Part shown: positions 19,838 through 59,601 of the stretch, piece by piece | How the letters are laid out: each line of letters starts with the position of its first letter | Position numbering within the stretch: position 1 is the first letter of the stretch | Assembly (NCBI GenBank): GCA_037445775.1 | Contig: JBBIJX010000004.1 | Location: 1 to 63,418 of the forward strand | DNA: 63,418 nt | Direction of reading: 5' to 3' | Source: Actinomycetota bacterium | GTDB taxonomy: Bacteria > Actinomycetota > Coriobacteriia > Anaerosomatales > PHET01 | Position numbers and translations under genes: made by a program | The notes under the pieces: generated by a model | Told to the model about the DNA's origin: nothing | Databases searched by the model: none | The model's input: the letters and a program-made list of their open reading frames with translations, nothing else

Positions 19838-19956
19838 TCCATTGGGAGTAGAGAATACGATGCACTACCGTGAGGGTACACCCCTGCCGCCGAAGGGTCA
19901 ATGCGCACGGTGAGGCACTGAGGGGAGCGTCGGCGCCTCACAACGGGAAGCACTGA

Positions 19957-19985
19957 TTGACCGCCCCGAGGTGCTGTTATAAGGT
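19957..19985 (+). promoter_or_regulatory. Candidate promoter of tRNA-Ile
   Basis: TTGACC (19957..19962), a 17-nt spacer, then TAAGGT (19980..19985), about 20 nt before the tRNA 5' end. Confidence 0.4.
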
Positions 19986-20006: not shown

Positions 20007-20083
20007 GGGCCCGTAGCTCAGTTGGTTAGAGCGCACGGCTGATAACCGTGAGGTCGATGGTTCGAATCCATCCGGGCCCACCA
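20007..20083 (+). tRNA. tRNA-Ile (anticodon GAU)
   Basis: Cloverleaf read by eye. Acceptor GGGCCCG/CGGGCCC, D-arm GCTCAGTTGGTTAGAGC, anticodon loop CTGATAA, T-arm GGTTCGAATCC. Discriminator is A and CCA is encoded. Confidence 0.93.
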
Positions 20084-54954: not shown

Positions 54955-55464
54955 GTGGGCGTCCTTGCAATCGAAAGCGTGACCGTGGACGAGCGGAAGC
55001 TCGAGGCTGTCGTGCGCGTCATCGACACCGCGTTGACGCGTACGTCGGCCGTGCCCGGCGTCGCGACGCGCGCGGTGGCGCTGCTCCCCGGACTTGCGCG
55101 GCACACCTGCGAGAACTCCGACGGGAGATATGCATTGCGCGAGTTCGCGAACACGGAGACGCCGCATCTGCTCGAGCACCTCACCTGCGAGCTCATGGCG
55201 TTGGCGGGCTCGCCGCGGACGCTTCGCGGCGCGACGTCTTGGGATTTCTCCCGCGACGGAGAGGGCGTGTTCCGCGTGTGCCTCGAGTACGACGATGATC
55301 TGGTCGCGCTCGGAGCGCTTCGCGAGGGATGTGCGATCGTCGAGTGGCTGCTGCGGGGAGCGGGCGGCGGCGAGGCACCCGACGTTGATGCGGCTGTCGG
55401 GCGGCTGCGGGCGGCGCGGGGTGGGGCGGCTTCAGGCGGCGGTGGCATCGGCGGCCATTCTTGA
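54955..55464 (+). CDS. Hypothetical protein resembling the stand-alone N-terminal domain of cyanophycin synthetase
   Basis: LLPGLARHTCENSDGRYALREF...TPHLLEHLTCELMALAG...GVFRVCLEYDDD parallels the CphA N-domain pattern LPSL.EH.CS.G....F..R....T...H..EH..LELQ.LAG...Y.V.FEY. The Gly-rich C-terminus follows. Confidence 0.4.
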   Translation: MGVLAIESVTVDERKLEAVVRVIDTALTRTSAVPGVATRAVALLPGLARHTCENSDGRYALREFANTETPHLLEHLTCELMALAGSPRTLRGATSWDFSRDGEGVFRVCLEYDDDLVALGALREGCAIVEWLLRGAGGGEAPDVDAAVGRLRAARGGAASGGGGIGGHS

Positions 55465-55480
55465 CGCGTAGCCATGCGAA

Positions 55481-55511
55481 GTCATACCATAGGTACGAAT
55501 GGGGGTATGAC
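55481..55511. promoter_or_regulatory. Inverted repeat GTCATACC-15 nt-GGTATGAC overlapping the promoter of the RHH-PIN operon
   Basis: TTGACG (55461..55466), an 18-nt spacer, then TACCAT (55485..55490). The inverted-repeat arms are at 55481..55488 and 55504..55511, ending 3 nt before GTG 55514. Confidence 0.5.
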
Positions 55512-55513
55512 TC

Positions 55514-55885
55514 GTGGTGCGCAAGGTGACGATATCGTTGCCCGACGAGCTGGCGACCAGCATCGACGCGGAAGCGTCGGCGCTGGGCGTGTCGCGCAGC
55601 GAACTCGTGCAGGAGGCTAGTGCGCACTACCTCGCGCTGTCGTTGGACGAGCGCGCACGTGAGGGGCTCCGGCGGCGCAGGCTTGACGCGCTCGCGGAGA
55701 TGGCCGCGATCGGCGCCGGCCCAGAAGCGGACCCGCGGCCGAGCCTCGAGATCATCCACGAGGGGCGGGACTTTCCAGACGCGCCCTCATGGGACGCGCC
55801 TGAGCGGGCCGCGTGGGAGGAGTCGGTGGGGTACGCGGAGTGGCGGGCAGGGCTGGGACTCGATGTCCACGACGCTCGTCTTTGA
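55514..55885 (+). CDS. Ribbon-helix-helix (CopG-type) antitoxin
   Basis: KVTISLPDELATSIDAEASALGVSRSELVQEASAHYL. It overlaps the PIN gene by 23 nt. Confidence 0.8.
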   Translation: MVRKVTISLPDELATSIDAEASALGVSRSELVQEASAHYLALSLDERAREGLRRRRLDALAEMAAIGAGPEADPRPSLEIIHEGRDFPDAPSWDAPERAAWEESVGYAEWRAGLGLDVHDARL

Positions 55886-56255
55886 CGCGTCCGCGGCCGT
55901 GAAGTGGTTCCGGCCGCAGGAGCCCGGCGCGGCGGCGGCTCGCTCACTGCTCGAGGACCCGGCGGCCGATGTGTGGCTTCCCGACAACGTGGTGCACGAG
56001 GTCGTGCGGAGCGTCGCTGCGCGCCGTGGCGTGGACGCTGCGGTTCGGGTGTGGGATGCGCTCGCGACCGCCGGGGTACTCGTCGGCCGTGTCGATGCCG
56101 AGCTCGTGAATACGGCGCTGCGCGTCAGCGAGGAGTTCGGATGCACCTACTATGATGCACTTGCGCCGGCACTCGCCCGGCTCGTCGGCGGAACGCTCGT
56201 GTCGGCGGACCGGCGCGCTCACGCGGGGATCCCGGGCGCGCTGATCGTGGGCTGA
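55863..56255 (+). CDS. PIN-domain toxin (VapC-like)
   Basis: ATG 55863 gives MSTTLVFDASAAVKWF...YYDALAPALA...LVSADRRA. It is a paralog of 19135..19554. Confidence 0.8.
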   Translation: MSTTLVFDASAAVKWFRPQEPGAAAARSLLEDPAADVWLPDNVVHEVVRSVAARRGVDAAVRVWDALATAGVLVGRVDAELVNTALRVSEEFGCTYYDALAPALARLVGGTLVSADRRAHAGIPGALIVG

Positions 56256-56585
56256 GTGCGGGCGTCTGCGCGGGGTAGGGCGGCGGTGAGAGCGGTCGTT
56301 GACCAGCACTTCCGCCCGGTGCTACCCTGCGTGGACACTCGGACGCGCGAACCGGGGCTGAACATCGAAGCACCACGGACGTGAGGGAAGAGGGCGCGCG
56401 ACGCACCCAGCCACCCCTCCAAAGTCCCCCGCCAGGGCGGCCCATGCGGCCGAGGGAAGCGGGTCGGTCCCGGACCGGTACCCCGGGAATGAGGCTCCTG
56501 AGGCGGCGTGCTTGGCCGCGGGGAGCGAAGATAGGTGGTACCGCGATGCCCCCTCGCCCTATCAGGCCGAGGGGGCTTTGTTGTT
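56256..56585 (+). promoter_or_regulatory. T-box riboswitch leader (tRNA-sensing transcription attenuator)
   Basis: T-box sequence AUAGGUGGUACCGCG at 56531..56545. Antiterminator: ATAGG-[TGGTACC bulge]-GCG-loop-CGC-CCTAT (56531..56562). It is mutually exclusive with the terminator at 56548..56585. A long imperfect Stem-I-like hairpin spans 56256..56373. Confidence 0.8.
56548..56585 (+). terminator. Intrinsic terminator of the T-box leader
   Basis: GCCCCCTCG-11 nt loop-CGAGGGGGC followed by TTTGTTGTT. It lies 44 nt upstream of ATG 56629. Confidence 0.8.
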
Positions 56586-56628
56586 GTTCGGGGGCCGTCA
56601 AGGGGCCTCCCGGAAGCGGGTGAGAGCG

Positions 56629-57900
56629 ATGGGAACCGCCAGGGTCGTCTTCGACAAGTGGCAAGGACGCTACGCTGAACGTCTCGCGGGCGTGCGGTCC
56701 AGCGCGGTGCGCGACCTGTTCGGCGCCGCGTCTCGTTCCGACATGATCTCGCTTGCCGGCGGCATGCCGGAGGTCTCGCGCGTGCCGGCCGAGGCGGTCG
56801 CGCAAGCGGCGCGCGAAGCGGTGCTGCACGAGGGCGCGCAGGCGCTCCAGTACGGCTCGAGCGAGGGCCGTCCGCAGACGCGCACGCTCGTCGTCGAGCT
56901 CATGGCCGAGATCGGTGTGCGCGTATGTGCCGACGACATCGCAATCACCGCCGGTGCCCAGCAGGGCCTGGACCTTCTGGGGAAGGCGTTCCTGAACCCC
57001 GGCGACGTTGTCATCGCCGAGGGTCCCACCTACCTGGGGGCGCTCCAGGCATTCAGCGCGTATCAGCCCGACGTGCGATGCGTGTCGCTCGACGAGCACG
57101 GCATGCGCATGGACCTCCTCGAGGAGGAGCTCAGGCGCGTGGGGCCGCGCGGCGCCAAGTTCATCTACACGATCCCGAACTTCCACAACCCCGGCGGCGT
57201 GACGATGAGCGCCGAGCGCAGACGCCGGCTGCTGGAGCTTTCGCGCGAGTACGACATCCCGGTGGTCGAGGACGATCCGTACGGCCGTCTGCGCTTCGAG
57301 GGCGGCCACATGAAGCCGCTGCGCGCGCTCGACGACGAGGTCATCTACTTGGGCACATTCAGCAAGATCTTCGCACCGGGACTTCGCTTGGGCTGGGTCG
57401 TGGCGCCCAGGCCCATCCTCGCTAAGCTGTTGCTCGTCAAGCAGGGAACCGATCTGTGCGGGAGTGCGTTCGCGCAGGTGACCGCCGAGCGCTACTTCAC
57501 CGGCACGCGCTGGCGCAAGGTGCTGCAGGGGTTGACGCAGACGTATGCCGAACGGCGTGACGCCATGCTTGCCGCGCTTGAAGAGCACTTTCCCGCGGAG
57601 GCGACGTGGACGCGGCCGGAGGGCGGCTTCTTCGTCTGGGTCGAGCTCCCACCCTACGTCGACTGCGCGAACATGCTCGCCGAAGCGGTCGAGCACGGTG
57701 TCGCGTTCGTGCCCGGCGACGGGTTCTTCCCCGACGGGCGCGGGCGCAACTGCATGCGCCTCGCGTTCTGCTATGCAGAACCGGAGGCGATCGCGGAGGG
57801 CATCCGCCGCTTGGGCGAAGTGCTCGAGGACCGGCTTGAGCTCTACCGAGCGTTCATCGCCGCGGGTGCCATCCCGGCTCCGGGTGCGGATGCGGCGTGA
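56629..57900 (+). CDS. PLP-dependent aminotransferase, class I/II fold (LysN/2-aminoadipate/branched-chain-type subgroup)
   Basis: SLAGGMPE..., QYGSSEG..., TIPNFHNPGG, and TFSKIFAPGLRLGW carrying the PLP lysine. Start set at ATG 56629, downstream of the leader terminator. Confidence 0.85.
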   Translation: MGTARVVFDKWQGRYAERLAGVRSSAVRDLFGAASRSDMISLAGGMPEVSRVPAEAVAQAAREAVLHEGAQALQYGSSEGRPQTRTLVVELMAEIGVRVCADDIAITAGAQQGLDLLGKAFLNPGDVVIAEGPTYLGALQAFSAYQPDVRCVSLDEHGMRMDLLEEELRRVGPRGAKFIYTIPNFHNPGGVTMSAERRRRLLELSREYDIPVVEDDPYGRLRFEGGHMKPLRALDDEVIYLGTFSKIFAPGLRLGWVVAPRPILAKLLLVKQGTDLCGSAFAQVTAERYFTGTRWRKVLQGLTQTYAERRDAMLAALEEHFPAEATWTRPEGGFFVWVELPPYVDCANMLAEAVEHGVAFVPGDGFFPDGRGRNCMRLAFCYAEPEAIAEGIRRLGEVLEDRLELYRAFIAAGAIPAPGADAA

Positions 57901-57922
57901 CGCGGGCGCTCCTTGCGGCCAC

Positions 57923-57941
57923 GTTGTAAACGGTTGTAAAC
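57923..57941 (+). promoter_or_regulatory. Tandem direct repeat GTTGTAAAC-g-GTTGTAAAC (10-bp period), likely RHH operator
   Basis: Read directly, 29 nt upstream of ATG 57970. Confidence 0.5.
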
Positions 57942-57969
57942 TGGTGGGGAACGACGATGGGAGGCCCAC

Positions 57970-58224
57970 ATGGCACGCACTGCGGTGACAATCGGGTTCT
58001 CGGTTCCCCCGGAGGTGGCGGCGTTGGTCGAGCGAATGGCCAAGCGCGAAGGCAAGAGCAAGAGCGAGCTCTTCCGCGACATGGTTCGCGTCTACGAGCG
58101 CGAGCGCGAACTCGAGATCTACGAGGACAATCTCGCGTATGGCCGCGCGAAGGCAGCCGAGCTCGGAATCAAGACCGAAGAGGATGTCGTCCGGCTGATC
58201 CACGAGTGGCGACGGGGTGAATAG
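57970..58224 (+). CDS. Ribbon-helix-helix antitoxin
   Basis: VTIGFSVPPEVAALVERMAKREGKSKSELFRDMVRVY. It overlaps the PIN gene by 8 nt. Confidence 0.8.
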   Translation: MARTAVTIGFSVPPEVAALVERMAKREGKSKSELFRDMVRVYERERELEIYEDNLAYGRAKAAELGIKTEEDVVRLIHEWRRGE

Positions 58225-58633
58225 AATCGTTCTCGATACCAGTGTGTTCGTGTCTGCACACGTGTTCGGCGGAAAGCCCGGTCGGCTCTGGCGCGCTCTT
58301 GTGGATCAGGATGCGCGGCTCGTATCGTCGCCTGCGATTCTTGCCGAGGTTGCGCGCGTTCTCTCTGACAAGTTCGGCATCTCCACTAGTCGAGTCGAGG
58401 CGGTGTTGTTGCAGGCAGCTCGTGTGGGAGAGCTTGTCCGGCCGGTGCGCACCCTTCTCATCGTCGCCGACGAGCCCGACAACCGCGTGTTGGAATGTGC
58501 TGTTGAAGGTGGGGCGGACGCTGTGGTCACCGGAGATCGGGACCTCCCGGACTCGGGCTCCTACTGTGGCATCGACATCGTCACCGTCGCTCACGCACTC
58601 GAGCGGCTCGGCATCAAGGAGGACGCACGATGA
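58217..58633 (+). CDS. PIN-domain toxin (TIGR00305-like PIN_3)
   Basis: MNRIVLDTSVFVSA..., DNRVLECAVEGGADAVVTGDRDL. The stop overlaps the ddl ATG (ATGA). Confidence 0.82.
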   Translation: MNRIVLDTSVFVSAHVFGGKPGRLWRALVDQDARLVSSPAILAEVARVLSDKFGISTSRVEAVLLQAARVGELVRPVRTLLIVADEPDNRVLECAVEGGADAVVTGDRDLPDSGSYCGIDIVTVAHALERLGIKEDAR

Positions 58634-59601
58634 AGCGGAAGATCGCGGTGCTGATGGGCGGCCGTTCGCTTGAGCGCGAGGTGTCCCTCGCGTCCGGAAG
58701 CCGGGTCTGTGATGCGCTCAAGGCGGCTGGCTTCTGCGTGCTCCCGCTTGACGTGACGACGGACCTCGTGGCCACGCTGCGCTCGGAGCGGCCCGATGCG
58801 GCCTACATCGCCCTGCACGGCACGTACGGCGAGGACGGCACGATCCAAGAGCTGCTCGAGTTCCTGCGCATCCCCTACACCGGCCCCGGGGTCGTCTCTT
58901 GCGCGCTGTCCTGGGACAAGTCGGTCGCTAAGCACCTGCTGGCGGAGCACGGGGTGGCGACGCCGCCGTGGATCACACTAACCGCTGACGCGTTCAAGCA
59001 GATGGGTGCCGCCTCCTCAGTCGACGCGATGGGCGAAGCCGTGGGCGGCTTCCCCGTGGCCGTGAAGCCGTGCAAGCAGGGCTCCGCGCTCGGGCTCGAG
59101 CGCATCGATGTGCGTGACGACCTCGCCGAGGCGCTGCTGGATGCGCTCTCGTTCGACGACGCGGTCATCGTGGAGCGTTGGATCGAGGGGGTCGAGCTCG
59201 CCGTGAGCGTCCTCGGCGAGGGTGCCGACATCGACGTGCTTCCGCCGGTGGAGATCGTGCCGAAGCAAACGCTCTACGACTTCGACGCGCGATACGCCGA
59301 AGGTGACACGGACTTCTTCGTGCCTGCCAGGCTTGCCGAGAACGTGCTGGAGCGCGTGGTGGAAGTAGCGGCCCGCGTCCACGATTTGCTGCGATGCCGG
59401 GACGTGAGCCGGGTCGACATGATCGTCGACGCTGACGGCGAGCCGTGGGTGCTCGAGTGCAACGCGTCGCCCGGCATGACAGAGACATCGCTCCTGCCCA
59501 TGGCGGGGCAGGCGGCCGGGATGTCGTTCACGGATGTCGTCACGCGCGTGGCCGAGGCCGCGCTTGCGCGAGCGCGGATTTCGGGTATACAGCAGTCGTG
59601 A
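58630..59601 (+). CDS. ddl: D-alanine--D-alanine ligase
   Basis: KIAVLMGGRSLEREVSLASG, ALHGTYGEDGTIQELLE, ATP-grasp segments, and the C-terminal VLECNASPGMTETSLLP. Confidence 0.93.
   Translation: MKRKIAVLMGGRSLEREVSLASGSRVCDALKAAGFCVLPLDVTTDLVATLRSERPDAAYIALHGTYGEDGTIQELLEFLRIPYTGPGVVSCALSWDKSVAKHLLAEHGVATPPWITLTADAFKQMGAASSVDAMGEAVGGFPVAVKPCKQGSALGLERIDVRDDLAEALLDALSFDDAVIVERWIEGVELAVSVLGEGADIDVLPPVEIVPKQTLYDFDARYAEGDTDFFVPARLAENVLERVVEVAARVHDLLRCRDVSRVDMIVDADGEPWVLECNASPGMTETSLLPMAGQAAGMSFTDVVTRVAEAALARARISGIQQS

Follow-up and report, generated by a model that had tools for sequence, protein, structure and literature searches.

The DNA analysed here is a window of 63,418 nucleotides, positions 1 to 63,418 of the forward strand of contig JBBIJX010000004.1 (NCBI GenBank assembly GCA_037445775.1), from an Actinomycetota bacterium of the order Anaerosomatales in the class Coriobacteriia. 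Towards its 3' end, a spacer of 373 nt runs from the stop codon of a PIN-domain gene (56255) to the ATG of a class I/II pyridoxal phosphate-dependent aminotransferase gene (56629), which is followed by a ribbon-helix-helix (RHH) antitoxin gene, a PIN_3 toxin gene and ddl, the predicted gene for a D-alanine-D-alanine ligase. These genes and all of the leader elements described below lie on the forward strand. The spacer contains the T-box sequence AUAGGUGGUACCGCG at 56531-56545, and the 12-mer GGTGGTACCGCG has a single exact occurrence in the window. A previous sequence-only reading of this DNA had located the spacer and its T-box sequence correctly and had proposed a canonical T-box antiterminator/terminator switch, read by a leucine or isoleucine tRNA, in front of the aminotransferase gene. 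Our analysis supports the switch and its place 5' of this gene. Architecture and helix covariation solidly support the view that the spacer is a genuine T-box riboswitch, and the tRNA that it senses is most likely tRNA-Ala, not tRNA-Ile or tRNA-Leu. The explanation that we favor, with a probability of about 0.72, is a tRNA-Ala-responsive T-box riboswitch that acts via transcription attenuation.

At the 3' end of the spacer lie two mutually exclusive folds. The antiterminator (56531-56563) is composed of helix A1 (56531-56535/56558-56562), the bulge UGGUACC (56536-56542, with UGGU at 56536-56539) and helix A2 (56543-56546/56554-56557), which includes the pairing of GCG (56543-56545) with CGC (56555-56557). 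It folds as had been described from the letters alone, and its local fold (56526-56566) reaches -9.6 kcal/mol. The intrinsic terminator (56548-56588) has arms at 56548-56556 and 56568-56576 that are followed by the U-rich tract UUUGUUGUUGUU (56577-56588), and it shares 56554-56562 with the antiterminator, confirming the proposal that the 3' half of the antiterminator serves both structures. The fold of 56545-56590 has an energy of -23.7 kcal/mol (z = -4.1), and a generic terminator scan flagged the inner part of this hairpin. For comparison we used 41 protein-anchored orthologous loci, each of which has the motif [A/U]GGUGGUACCGCG on the 5' side of the aminotransferase gene, at a distance of 72-155 nt; this recurrence and the covariation of the helices exceed chance by far. 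All 41 have an equivalent terminator hairpin that reuses CCCUCGCC (mean -20.7 kcal/mol) with arms that vary by clade, for example GACCCCUC.. and GACGACCCUC.., and the 12 nt after the hairpin hold 6.8 U on average in these leaders, where about 2 would be expected from the 17% T background (the genome has 67% G+C). The alternation of a UGGN bulge with a terminator, which the sequence-only reading had singled out as a feature that orthologous leaders might lack, was found in every one of them. Across 106 leaders UGGUACC and A2 are invariant and A1 covaries perfectly, being AUAGG/CCUAU in 52, ACAGG/CCUGU in 45 (with 3' strands CCUGUC in 29 and CCUGUU in 16) and AUUGG/CCAAU in 9.

We modeled the antiterminator state on an alignment of 30 sequences, covering Stem I (C-stem, lower helix and apical stem), the Stem II base, IIA, IIB, A1 and A2. 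In this model 97% of cells pair, as against 37-52% when the 3' partners were slid, and 11 pairs show compensatory changes compared with 4.6 ± 1.3 in shuffled alignments, none out of 500 of which reached that number. Compensatory changes were seen in six helices of the leader, and an all-against-all covariation scan pointed to these helices again, with the Stem III base, IIB, the Stem II base and A1 ranking highest. The base helix of Stem II (56428-56432/56459-56463, within 56428-56463) is 100% paired and has three pairs with compensatory changes (CG/UA, CG/GC); above it lie an S-turn-like invariant internal loop, GCCAG ... GGAAGC, and a variable distal part that is of unrelated sequence between leaders yet forms a hairpin in all 41. 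Next comes the Stem IIA/B pseudoknot (56465-56487), with IIA at 56465-56467/56475-56477 and IIB at 56469-56473/56483-56487, which includes the F-box-like CCGGUA/CCGUUA. Ten CG-to-GC swaps along with further compensatory pairs were found in IIB, and 56469/56487 is among the top covarying column pairs of the unbiased scan. Stem III (56494-56526) has purine-rich flanks (56488-56530 in all), with AAUGAG (consensus AAYGAG) 5' of it and GAAG, which never varies, 3' of it. It is a hairpin of unrelated sequence in all 41 leaders, and its four basal pairs are the strongest covarying pairs of the leader.

Two candidate structures were not retained. RNAalifold on a MAFFT alignment produced spurious long-range GC pairings, which we did not adopt. 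A tertiary pair between 56409 and 56490 was A-U in 20, G-C in 12 and G·U in 4 sequences of a first set, but among 98 leaders A·C (14) was about as frequent as G·U (11), which points to clade structure. RNAalifold also paired the specifier-loop GCCACC (56410-56415) with the complementary GGUGGU of the T-box (56534-56539); both are invariant, and the match may be a coincidence.

The leader family was found in about 100 species-level genomes of Coriobacteriia/Anaerosomatales, with pattern scans taking one genome per species. A scan for the Stem I skeleton with a G-initial codon returned 116 loci. Among the 80 matches listed, 74 carry GCC and 71 of those 74 have the full leader, all 71 of them in front of the aminotransferase gene. 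A second scan with an independent anchor returned 84 loci. The matches were labeled Coriobacteriia, Anaerosomatales or Actinomycetota, bar a few chance ones from unrelated phyla that were without a T-box. In these scans the family was confined to one operon, that of the aminotransferase and ddl.

The part of the leader that would decode the tRNA is a truncated Stem I (56377-56427). Its outer C-stem GGAC/GUCC (56377-56380/56424-56427) occurs in covarying variants (GGAC/GUCC, GAAC/GUUC, GGAU/AUCC and AGAC/GUCU). Inside it follow the invariant 5' strand GUGAGGG (56381-56387), the 5' side of the specifier loop, AAGA (56388-56391), a short apical hairpin (56392-56408), the 3' side of the specifier loop (56409-56414), an invariant CCCUCC (56415-56420) and an N-A-N internal loop (56421-56423). 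With the lower Stem I left unconstrained in a genome scan, GUGAGGG was recovered in 83 of 83 cases and CCCCUCC in 82 of 83. The apical hairpin has only 4 bp and about 7 loop nt, with a single compensatory case (GAGC/GCUC) in its stem, and the segment above the specifier loop, which shows no conserved motif, is 11-18 nt long in all but one of the 106 leaders. An AG bulge and a distal loop are therefore missing, and without them there is no interdigitated T-loop platform on which the tRNA elbow could stack. This Stem I matches the "intermediate" type of actinobacterial T-boxes (PMC7583486). A divergent ortholog (L055, positions ~2690-2760) has an insertion of ~60 nt in the Stem I apex, in which no obvious AG-bulge or distal-loop motifs were seen.

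The 3' side of the specifier loop has the consensus R-GCC-R-C and contains, at 56410-56412, GCC as the candidate specifier (Ala) with A56413, a conserved purine, on its 3' side. None of the 41 protein-anchored leaders deviates from GCC; 40 of them continue with A and one (L018) with G, and the base 5' of GCC is A or G about equally often. The varying 5' base excludes an AGC frame, which would alternate between Ser and Gly, and neither CAC nor ACC is a consistent frame in view of the one A-to-G change, that of L018, so that the only frames that seem to be left are GCC followed by a purine and CCA/CCG followed by C. A conserved purine after the specifier and a C-rule imposed by the Stem II S-turn have been described for T-boxes (PMC7583486, PMC7778990); GCC fits both of these and CCA fits neither. 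Taking the purine rule, the C-rule and the function of the operon together, the specifier would be GCC and the effector tRNA-Ala in place of the leucine or isoleucine tRNA suggested earlier. The prediction that the UGGU bulge calls for a tRNA with discriminator A73 is supported, as the tRNA-Ala(UGC) gene of the window has A73 together with G3:U70 and an encoded CCA. A73 is also found in tRNA-Ile, so that the bulge by itself does not settle the choice.

The strongest independent argument for alanine is the operon content. The aminotransferase (56629-57900, 423 aa) is a fold type I PLP enzyme of the KAT-II/LysN/multiple-substrate family (Pfam Aminotran_1_2, E = 3.5e-34) for which no NCBIfam equivalog was found at cut-off. 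Its closest solved structures are PH0207 (1e-113), the T. profundus multiple-substrate aminotransferase, the T. litoralis alanine:glyoxylate aminotransferase and T. thermophilus LysN. From the riboswitch and the ddl linkage only, we predict that it is alanine-forming. The second regulated gene of the ancestral operon, ddl (58630-59601), has an ATG that overlaps the PIN_3 stop codon (58630-58633) in the window; we take it to encode D-alanine-D-alanine ligase from its conserved N-terminus (...EKIAVLMGGRSLERE), in light of what is generally known of the family. In essentially every ortholog the ddl start overlaps, abuts or lies no more than ~45 nt from the aminotransferase stop, and the two genes appear to be translationally coupled there. 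Among the matches listed, ddl lies downstream in 48 of 71 leaders, five of them at shorter loci and the others among the 45 leaders with 2.7 kb or more of downstream sequence, where 43 have ddl. The adjacency of the two genes is also kept in Raoultibacter and Solirubrobacter relatives (L033, L037) that have no T-box. Alanine is the one amino acid that links the aminotransferase and ddl.

Upstream of these structures we identified a conserved promoter (56299-56328) with a -35 element TTGACC (56299-56304), an 18-nt spacer and an extended -10 element TGcTACCCT (56320-56328). The pattern TTGACC-17/18/19-TAnnnT is conserved in 39 of 41 orthologous leaders, mostly with the upstream TG of an extended -10, and its spacer is 18 nt long in 36 of the 39. 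In these leaders the -10 element ends ~50 nt 5' of Stem I and the DNA upstream of the -35 element is unalignable. Transcription is predicted to start near 56335. A generic promoter scan of the window did not call this promoter because its -10 matches only 3 of 6 positions, and the pattern as such occurs three times in the window compared with 0.12 expected. One of the other two occurrences, TTGACC-17-TAAGGT (19957-19985), shares the consensus of the riboswitch promoter and directly precedes a tRNA-Ile(GAU) gene (20007-20083); the third is on the minus strand at 19873-19901.

Between the promoter and Stem I, the leader has a further 5' element (56338-56364) composed of a hairpin that we call P0 (56338-56342/56352-56356) and a single-stranded CUGAACA (N-Y-G-N-A-Y-A; 56358-56364). 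The element is located 15-20 nt 5' of Stem I, and P0 is one hairpin with freely varying stems that ends no more than 3 nt before the motif in 32 of 39 leaders. To our knowledge, a hairpin such as P0 is not part of any described T-box. The covariation scan of the leaders found no long-range covarying partner for P0 or the linker. A pairing of the linker motif with the F-box region, which are part-complementary by eye, was rejected, as leaders of the GAAUA type keep UAUCC and there is no covariation. We speculate that P0 might compensate for the missing platform.

Based on these features, we propose the following mechanism. RNA polymerase would initiate near 56335 from the promoter at 56299-56328, and the leader would fold into P0, a truncated Stem I whose internal loop displays GCC-A, Stem II with its S-turn-like loop, the IIA/B pseudoknot and Stem III. 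An uncharged tRNA-Ala (GGC, A73) would then bind at two sites, its anticodon pairing with GCC and its free ACCA end with the UGGU bulge. With this support the antiterminator, the weaker fold (-9.6 kcal/mol), would hold out against the terminator (-23.7 kcal/mol), and RNA polymerase would read through. Charged tRNA-Ala would be unable to stabilize the antiterminator, and transcription would stop at 56577-56588. Since the aminotransferase gene and ddl form the ancestral regulated unit, alanine starvation would be expected to raise both L-alanine synthesis and D-Ala-D-Ala ligase.

The genes that surround this unit in the window are two toxin-antitoxin pairs. Upstream are an RHH gene (55514-55885) and a PIN gene (~55863-56255) with matches to Pfam RHH_1 and PIN, of which no homologue was found in any orthologous locus examined; there, the promoter follows a Cyanophycin_syn-N-like gene instead of PIN. 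The second pair, an RHH antitoxin (57970-58224) and a PIN_3 toxin (58217-58633) with matches to RHH_1 and PIN_3, sits exactly in the ancestral stop/start junction of the aminotransferase and ddl genes and was absent from every orthologous locus examined. Both pairs appear to be insertions private to this genome. The observation that the switch is wedged between two RHH-PIN modules is therefore true of this genome but incidental, since the orthologs are all without these modules and it is ddl that is conserved as the partner gene. A terminator scan of 57850-58700 called none, and the RHH-PIN_3 pair probably rides on the riboswitch-controlled transcript. A tandem repeat of GTTGTAAAC, present twice (GTTGTAAACG / GTTGTAAACT) at 57923-57942 and 28 nt 5' of the second RHH gene, is a likely antitoxin operator, and it is plausible that as an operator or promoter it could give ddl riboswitch-independent expression. 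In front of the first RHH gene, a promoter-like TTGACG-18-TACCAT (55461-55490) overlaps a perfect 9-bp palindrome, AGTCATACC...GGTATGACT (55480-55512), and the layout at 55461-55512 looks like a typical autoregulated toxin-antitoxin promoter/operator. At the other end of the window, positions 40-111 match the Rfam group II intron model RF00029 (41.5 bits against a gathering score of 40).

A number of observations, some on the architecture of the leader and others on its codon frame, weigh against a tRNA-Ala-responsive attenuator, and we consider them here with the alternatives to which they lend support. The Rfam T-box model RF00230 (gathering score 93 bits) has no match in the window at its gathering threshold, none at E <= 10 on a 601-nt slice and no alignment on the decoding domain/Stem I alone, and it reached threshold in none of 20 orthologous loci. 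With the 116-nt query 56480-56595, model positions 146-219, covering Stem III and the antiterminator, align to 56480-56564 (16.6 bits, E = 0.043). The T-box is thus not "canonical" as first described, as its Stem I is truncated without a distal platform and RF00230 matches its 3' domain only. The sequence-only reading had also regarded a failure of the covariance model as refuting a T-box; this failure was literally observed, yet it is not a valid refutation because RF00230 is known to miss T-boxes with a short Stem I, and these "class II" T-boxes needed a custom model in TBDB (PMC7778990). What the Rfam failure does show is an atypical 5' half. Further, the basal pair of A2 (56543/56557) is an invariant G-C pair (30/30 and 106/106 leaders) where the Rfam consensus has G·U (CGUCCC), a G·U that is considered the conserved primary steric sensor of the aminoacyl group (PMC7583486). 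The putative kink-turn region, which has an invariant GUGA on its 5' strand and N-A-N with a near-invariant A (56422) on its 3' strand, does not look canonical, in that the bulge and strand lengths misfit a standard kink-turn. The U-tract is interrupted by a G, and the sequencing runs that contain the locus are DNA from subsurface metagenomes only, with zero RNA runs. Transcriptional T-boxes generally need a long Stem I platform for fast tRNA capture, a truncated Stem I being a feature of translational T-boxes (PMC7583486), and early surveys reported no classical terminator-type T-boxes in Actinobacteria. These two points, together with a purine-rich, Shine-Dalgarno (SD)-like 3' arm (GAGGGGG), would fit a T-box with the same decoding but a different output, either translational, through SD sequestration as in the actinobacterial ileS leaders, or through Rho-dependent in place of intrinsic termination. 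We find this unlikely. The ribosome-binding site lies outside the hairpin and 30-50 nt past it, with its own SD sequence (e.g. AAGGUGG) just 5' of the AUG, which itself is 52 nt beyond the hairpin in the window and ~30 nt beyond it in the closest-spaced orthologs; this spacing and the U-rich tail conserved in a G+C-rich genome speak against translational control and for attenuation.

The identity of the amino acid depends on the codon frame, and the lower Stem I and the C-run after the codon never vary, so that register and frame are beyond a covariation test. On the minimum-free-energy fold, the frame that TBDB takes by default, positions 2-4 counted from the bulge's 3' end, gives CCA, and the cognate tRNA-Ala(GGC) gene is absent from the window, where only the UGC isoacceptor occurs. 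A frame test through paralogous leaders, in which the Stem I skeleton was searched with non-G codons, gave 23 matches compared with ~50 expected by chance, none of them with a T-box. If the frame were shifted to CCA (56411-56413) or CCC (56414-56417), the same T-box would sense tRNA-Pro; bacterial tRNA-Pro usually has A73, and the CCG of L018 would still encode proline. This seems to us quite improbable, given that CCA would precede C and not the conserved purine, would break the C-rule, and would point to an amino acid unlinked to this aminotransferase family or ddl, whereas alanine links to both. The canonical T-box proposed from the letters alone, with a long Stem I at 56256-56373 and a Leu (CUG) or Ile (AUC) specifier at 56358-56367, has in its favor that the window's tRNA-Ile also fits the bulge, that ileS T-boxes are the classical actinobacterial case, and that 56256-56373 does form an imperfect inverted repeat, 74-82% complementary in its arms, which folds well (-65 kcal/mol, z = -3.0). 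The hairpin exists, but its assignment to Stem I is wrong. The conserved promoter (TTGACC-18-TACCCT) sits within the hairpin, most of which would therefore be untranscribed from there, and the GAGAGC element (56288-56293) that had been assigned to Stem I sits 5' of the -35 element. No ortholog has anything corresponding to the hairpin's left arm (56256-56298), since this genome alone carries the toxin-antitoxin insertion. The supposed specifiers CUG-A (56358-56361) and AUC-G (56364-56367) are in the 5' linker, which is unconserved as codons (GCGAAUA, CUGGAUA, GCGAAUAG and CUGGAUAG in orthologs), and the Stem I at 56377-56427 is distinct from this hairpin and conserved throughout, with a specifier loop that does not vary. 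The comparative data already contradict the long-hairpin model, and we give it almost no credence. The last alternative is that the leader is a decaying relic in this genome, with control disabled or bypassed through the toxin-antitoxin insertions and a kink-turn variant. Two close orthologs, L019 (2860-3010) and L021 (2740-3010), keep the promoter and a terminator-like hairpin (CCCCTCGCCCT...) and have lost Stems I-III with the entire decoding domain, apparently in independent decay events; the window has AAA at 56421-56423 where most leaders have GAU, as well as a C·A mismatch in its apical stem, and the second toxin-antitoxin pair brings the likely operator or promoter 5' of ddl. Yet all conserved elements are intact in the window, the AAA variant is shared by another leader (L007) and retains the near-invariant A, and the aminotransferase gene is undamaged, with identities of up to 88% to its orthologs, making decay a very improbable account next to a working tRNA-Ala-responsive attenuator.

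The leader can also be compared with known T-box systems. It resembles the canonical transcriptional T-boxes (RF00230; B. subtilis tyrS and glyQS) in that its T-box agrees with the consensus AGGGUGGNACCGCG in 12 of 14 nt, that A1 and A2 flank a UGGNACC bulge of 7 nt, that purines border Stem III, that a purine comes after the specifier, and that an intrinsic terminator with a U-tract and the antiterminator are mutually exclusive; Stem II and the IIA/B pseudoknot are shared as well. Unlike in the canonical T-boxes, its Stem I ends 4 bp and ~7 loop nt above the specifier loop with no AG bulge, distal loop or platform, the specifier loop is without an S-turn, the A2 basal pair is G-C, and there is an extra conserved 5' hairpin. 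The actinobacterial ileS T-boxes of M. tuberculosis and N. farcinica (TBDB "class II", with an intermediate or ultrashort Stem I), which we compared by description, are from the same phylum and likewise have a truncated Stem I without a platform that is used with a Stem II S-turn and IIA/B and is missed by RF00230. Although these T-boxes sequester the SD sequence, read AUC (Ile) and control ileS, the leader described here has a hairpin and U-tract well 5' of the SD sequence, GCC and an aminotransferase-ddl operon. With the Firmicute alaS T-boxes, such as that of C. acetobutylicum alaS (PMC4695836), the leader shares its predicted tRNA-Ala effector and an antiterminator/terminator switch, but these T-boxes have a canonical long Stem I and control alanyl-tRNA synthetase. 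Ala T-boxes in TBDB prefer specifiers that end in U (PMC7778990), whereas this family invariably has GCC. Finally, the S. aureus glyS T-box (PMC4574755) likewise ties the charging of one tRNA family to the supply of peptidoglycan precursors. That link runs via non-proteinogenic tRNA-Gly isoacceptors and a synthetase gene, while here ddl itself is in the operon.

A truncated Stem I combined with an intrinsic terminator, a G-C pair in place of the G·U sensor, an extra 5' hairpin and ddl in the regulon make an unusual set of features. Our search of the literature, which did not extend to TBDB entries, came upon no account of T-boxes in Coriobacteriia, of aminotransferase leaders specific for Ala or of ddl under T-box control. 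As a tentative model, which we think possible and would still bet against in its full form, the family may terminate transcription without a Stem I platform, with P0 and its motif, the invariant lower Stem I and the G-C pair compensating for the loss, and may couple tRNA-Ala charging to D-Ala-D-Ala synthesis through ddl. These leaders would then offer a natural test both of the kinetic argument that terminator-type T-boxes need the platform (PMC7583486) and of whether the G·U pair is essential. They also expose a blind spot, in that the Rfam T-box model misses the entire family and standard annotation will therefore not report it. For the organisms themselves, the riboswitch provides a functional prediction for a KAT-II/LysN-family aminotransferase in ~100 uncultured species of Coriobacteriia/Anaerosomatales, namely that the enzyme would be alanine-forming and co-expressed with ddl, which would bring the gene of a cell-wall enzyme into the T-box regulon.

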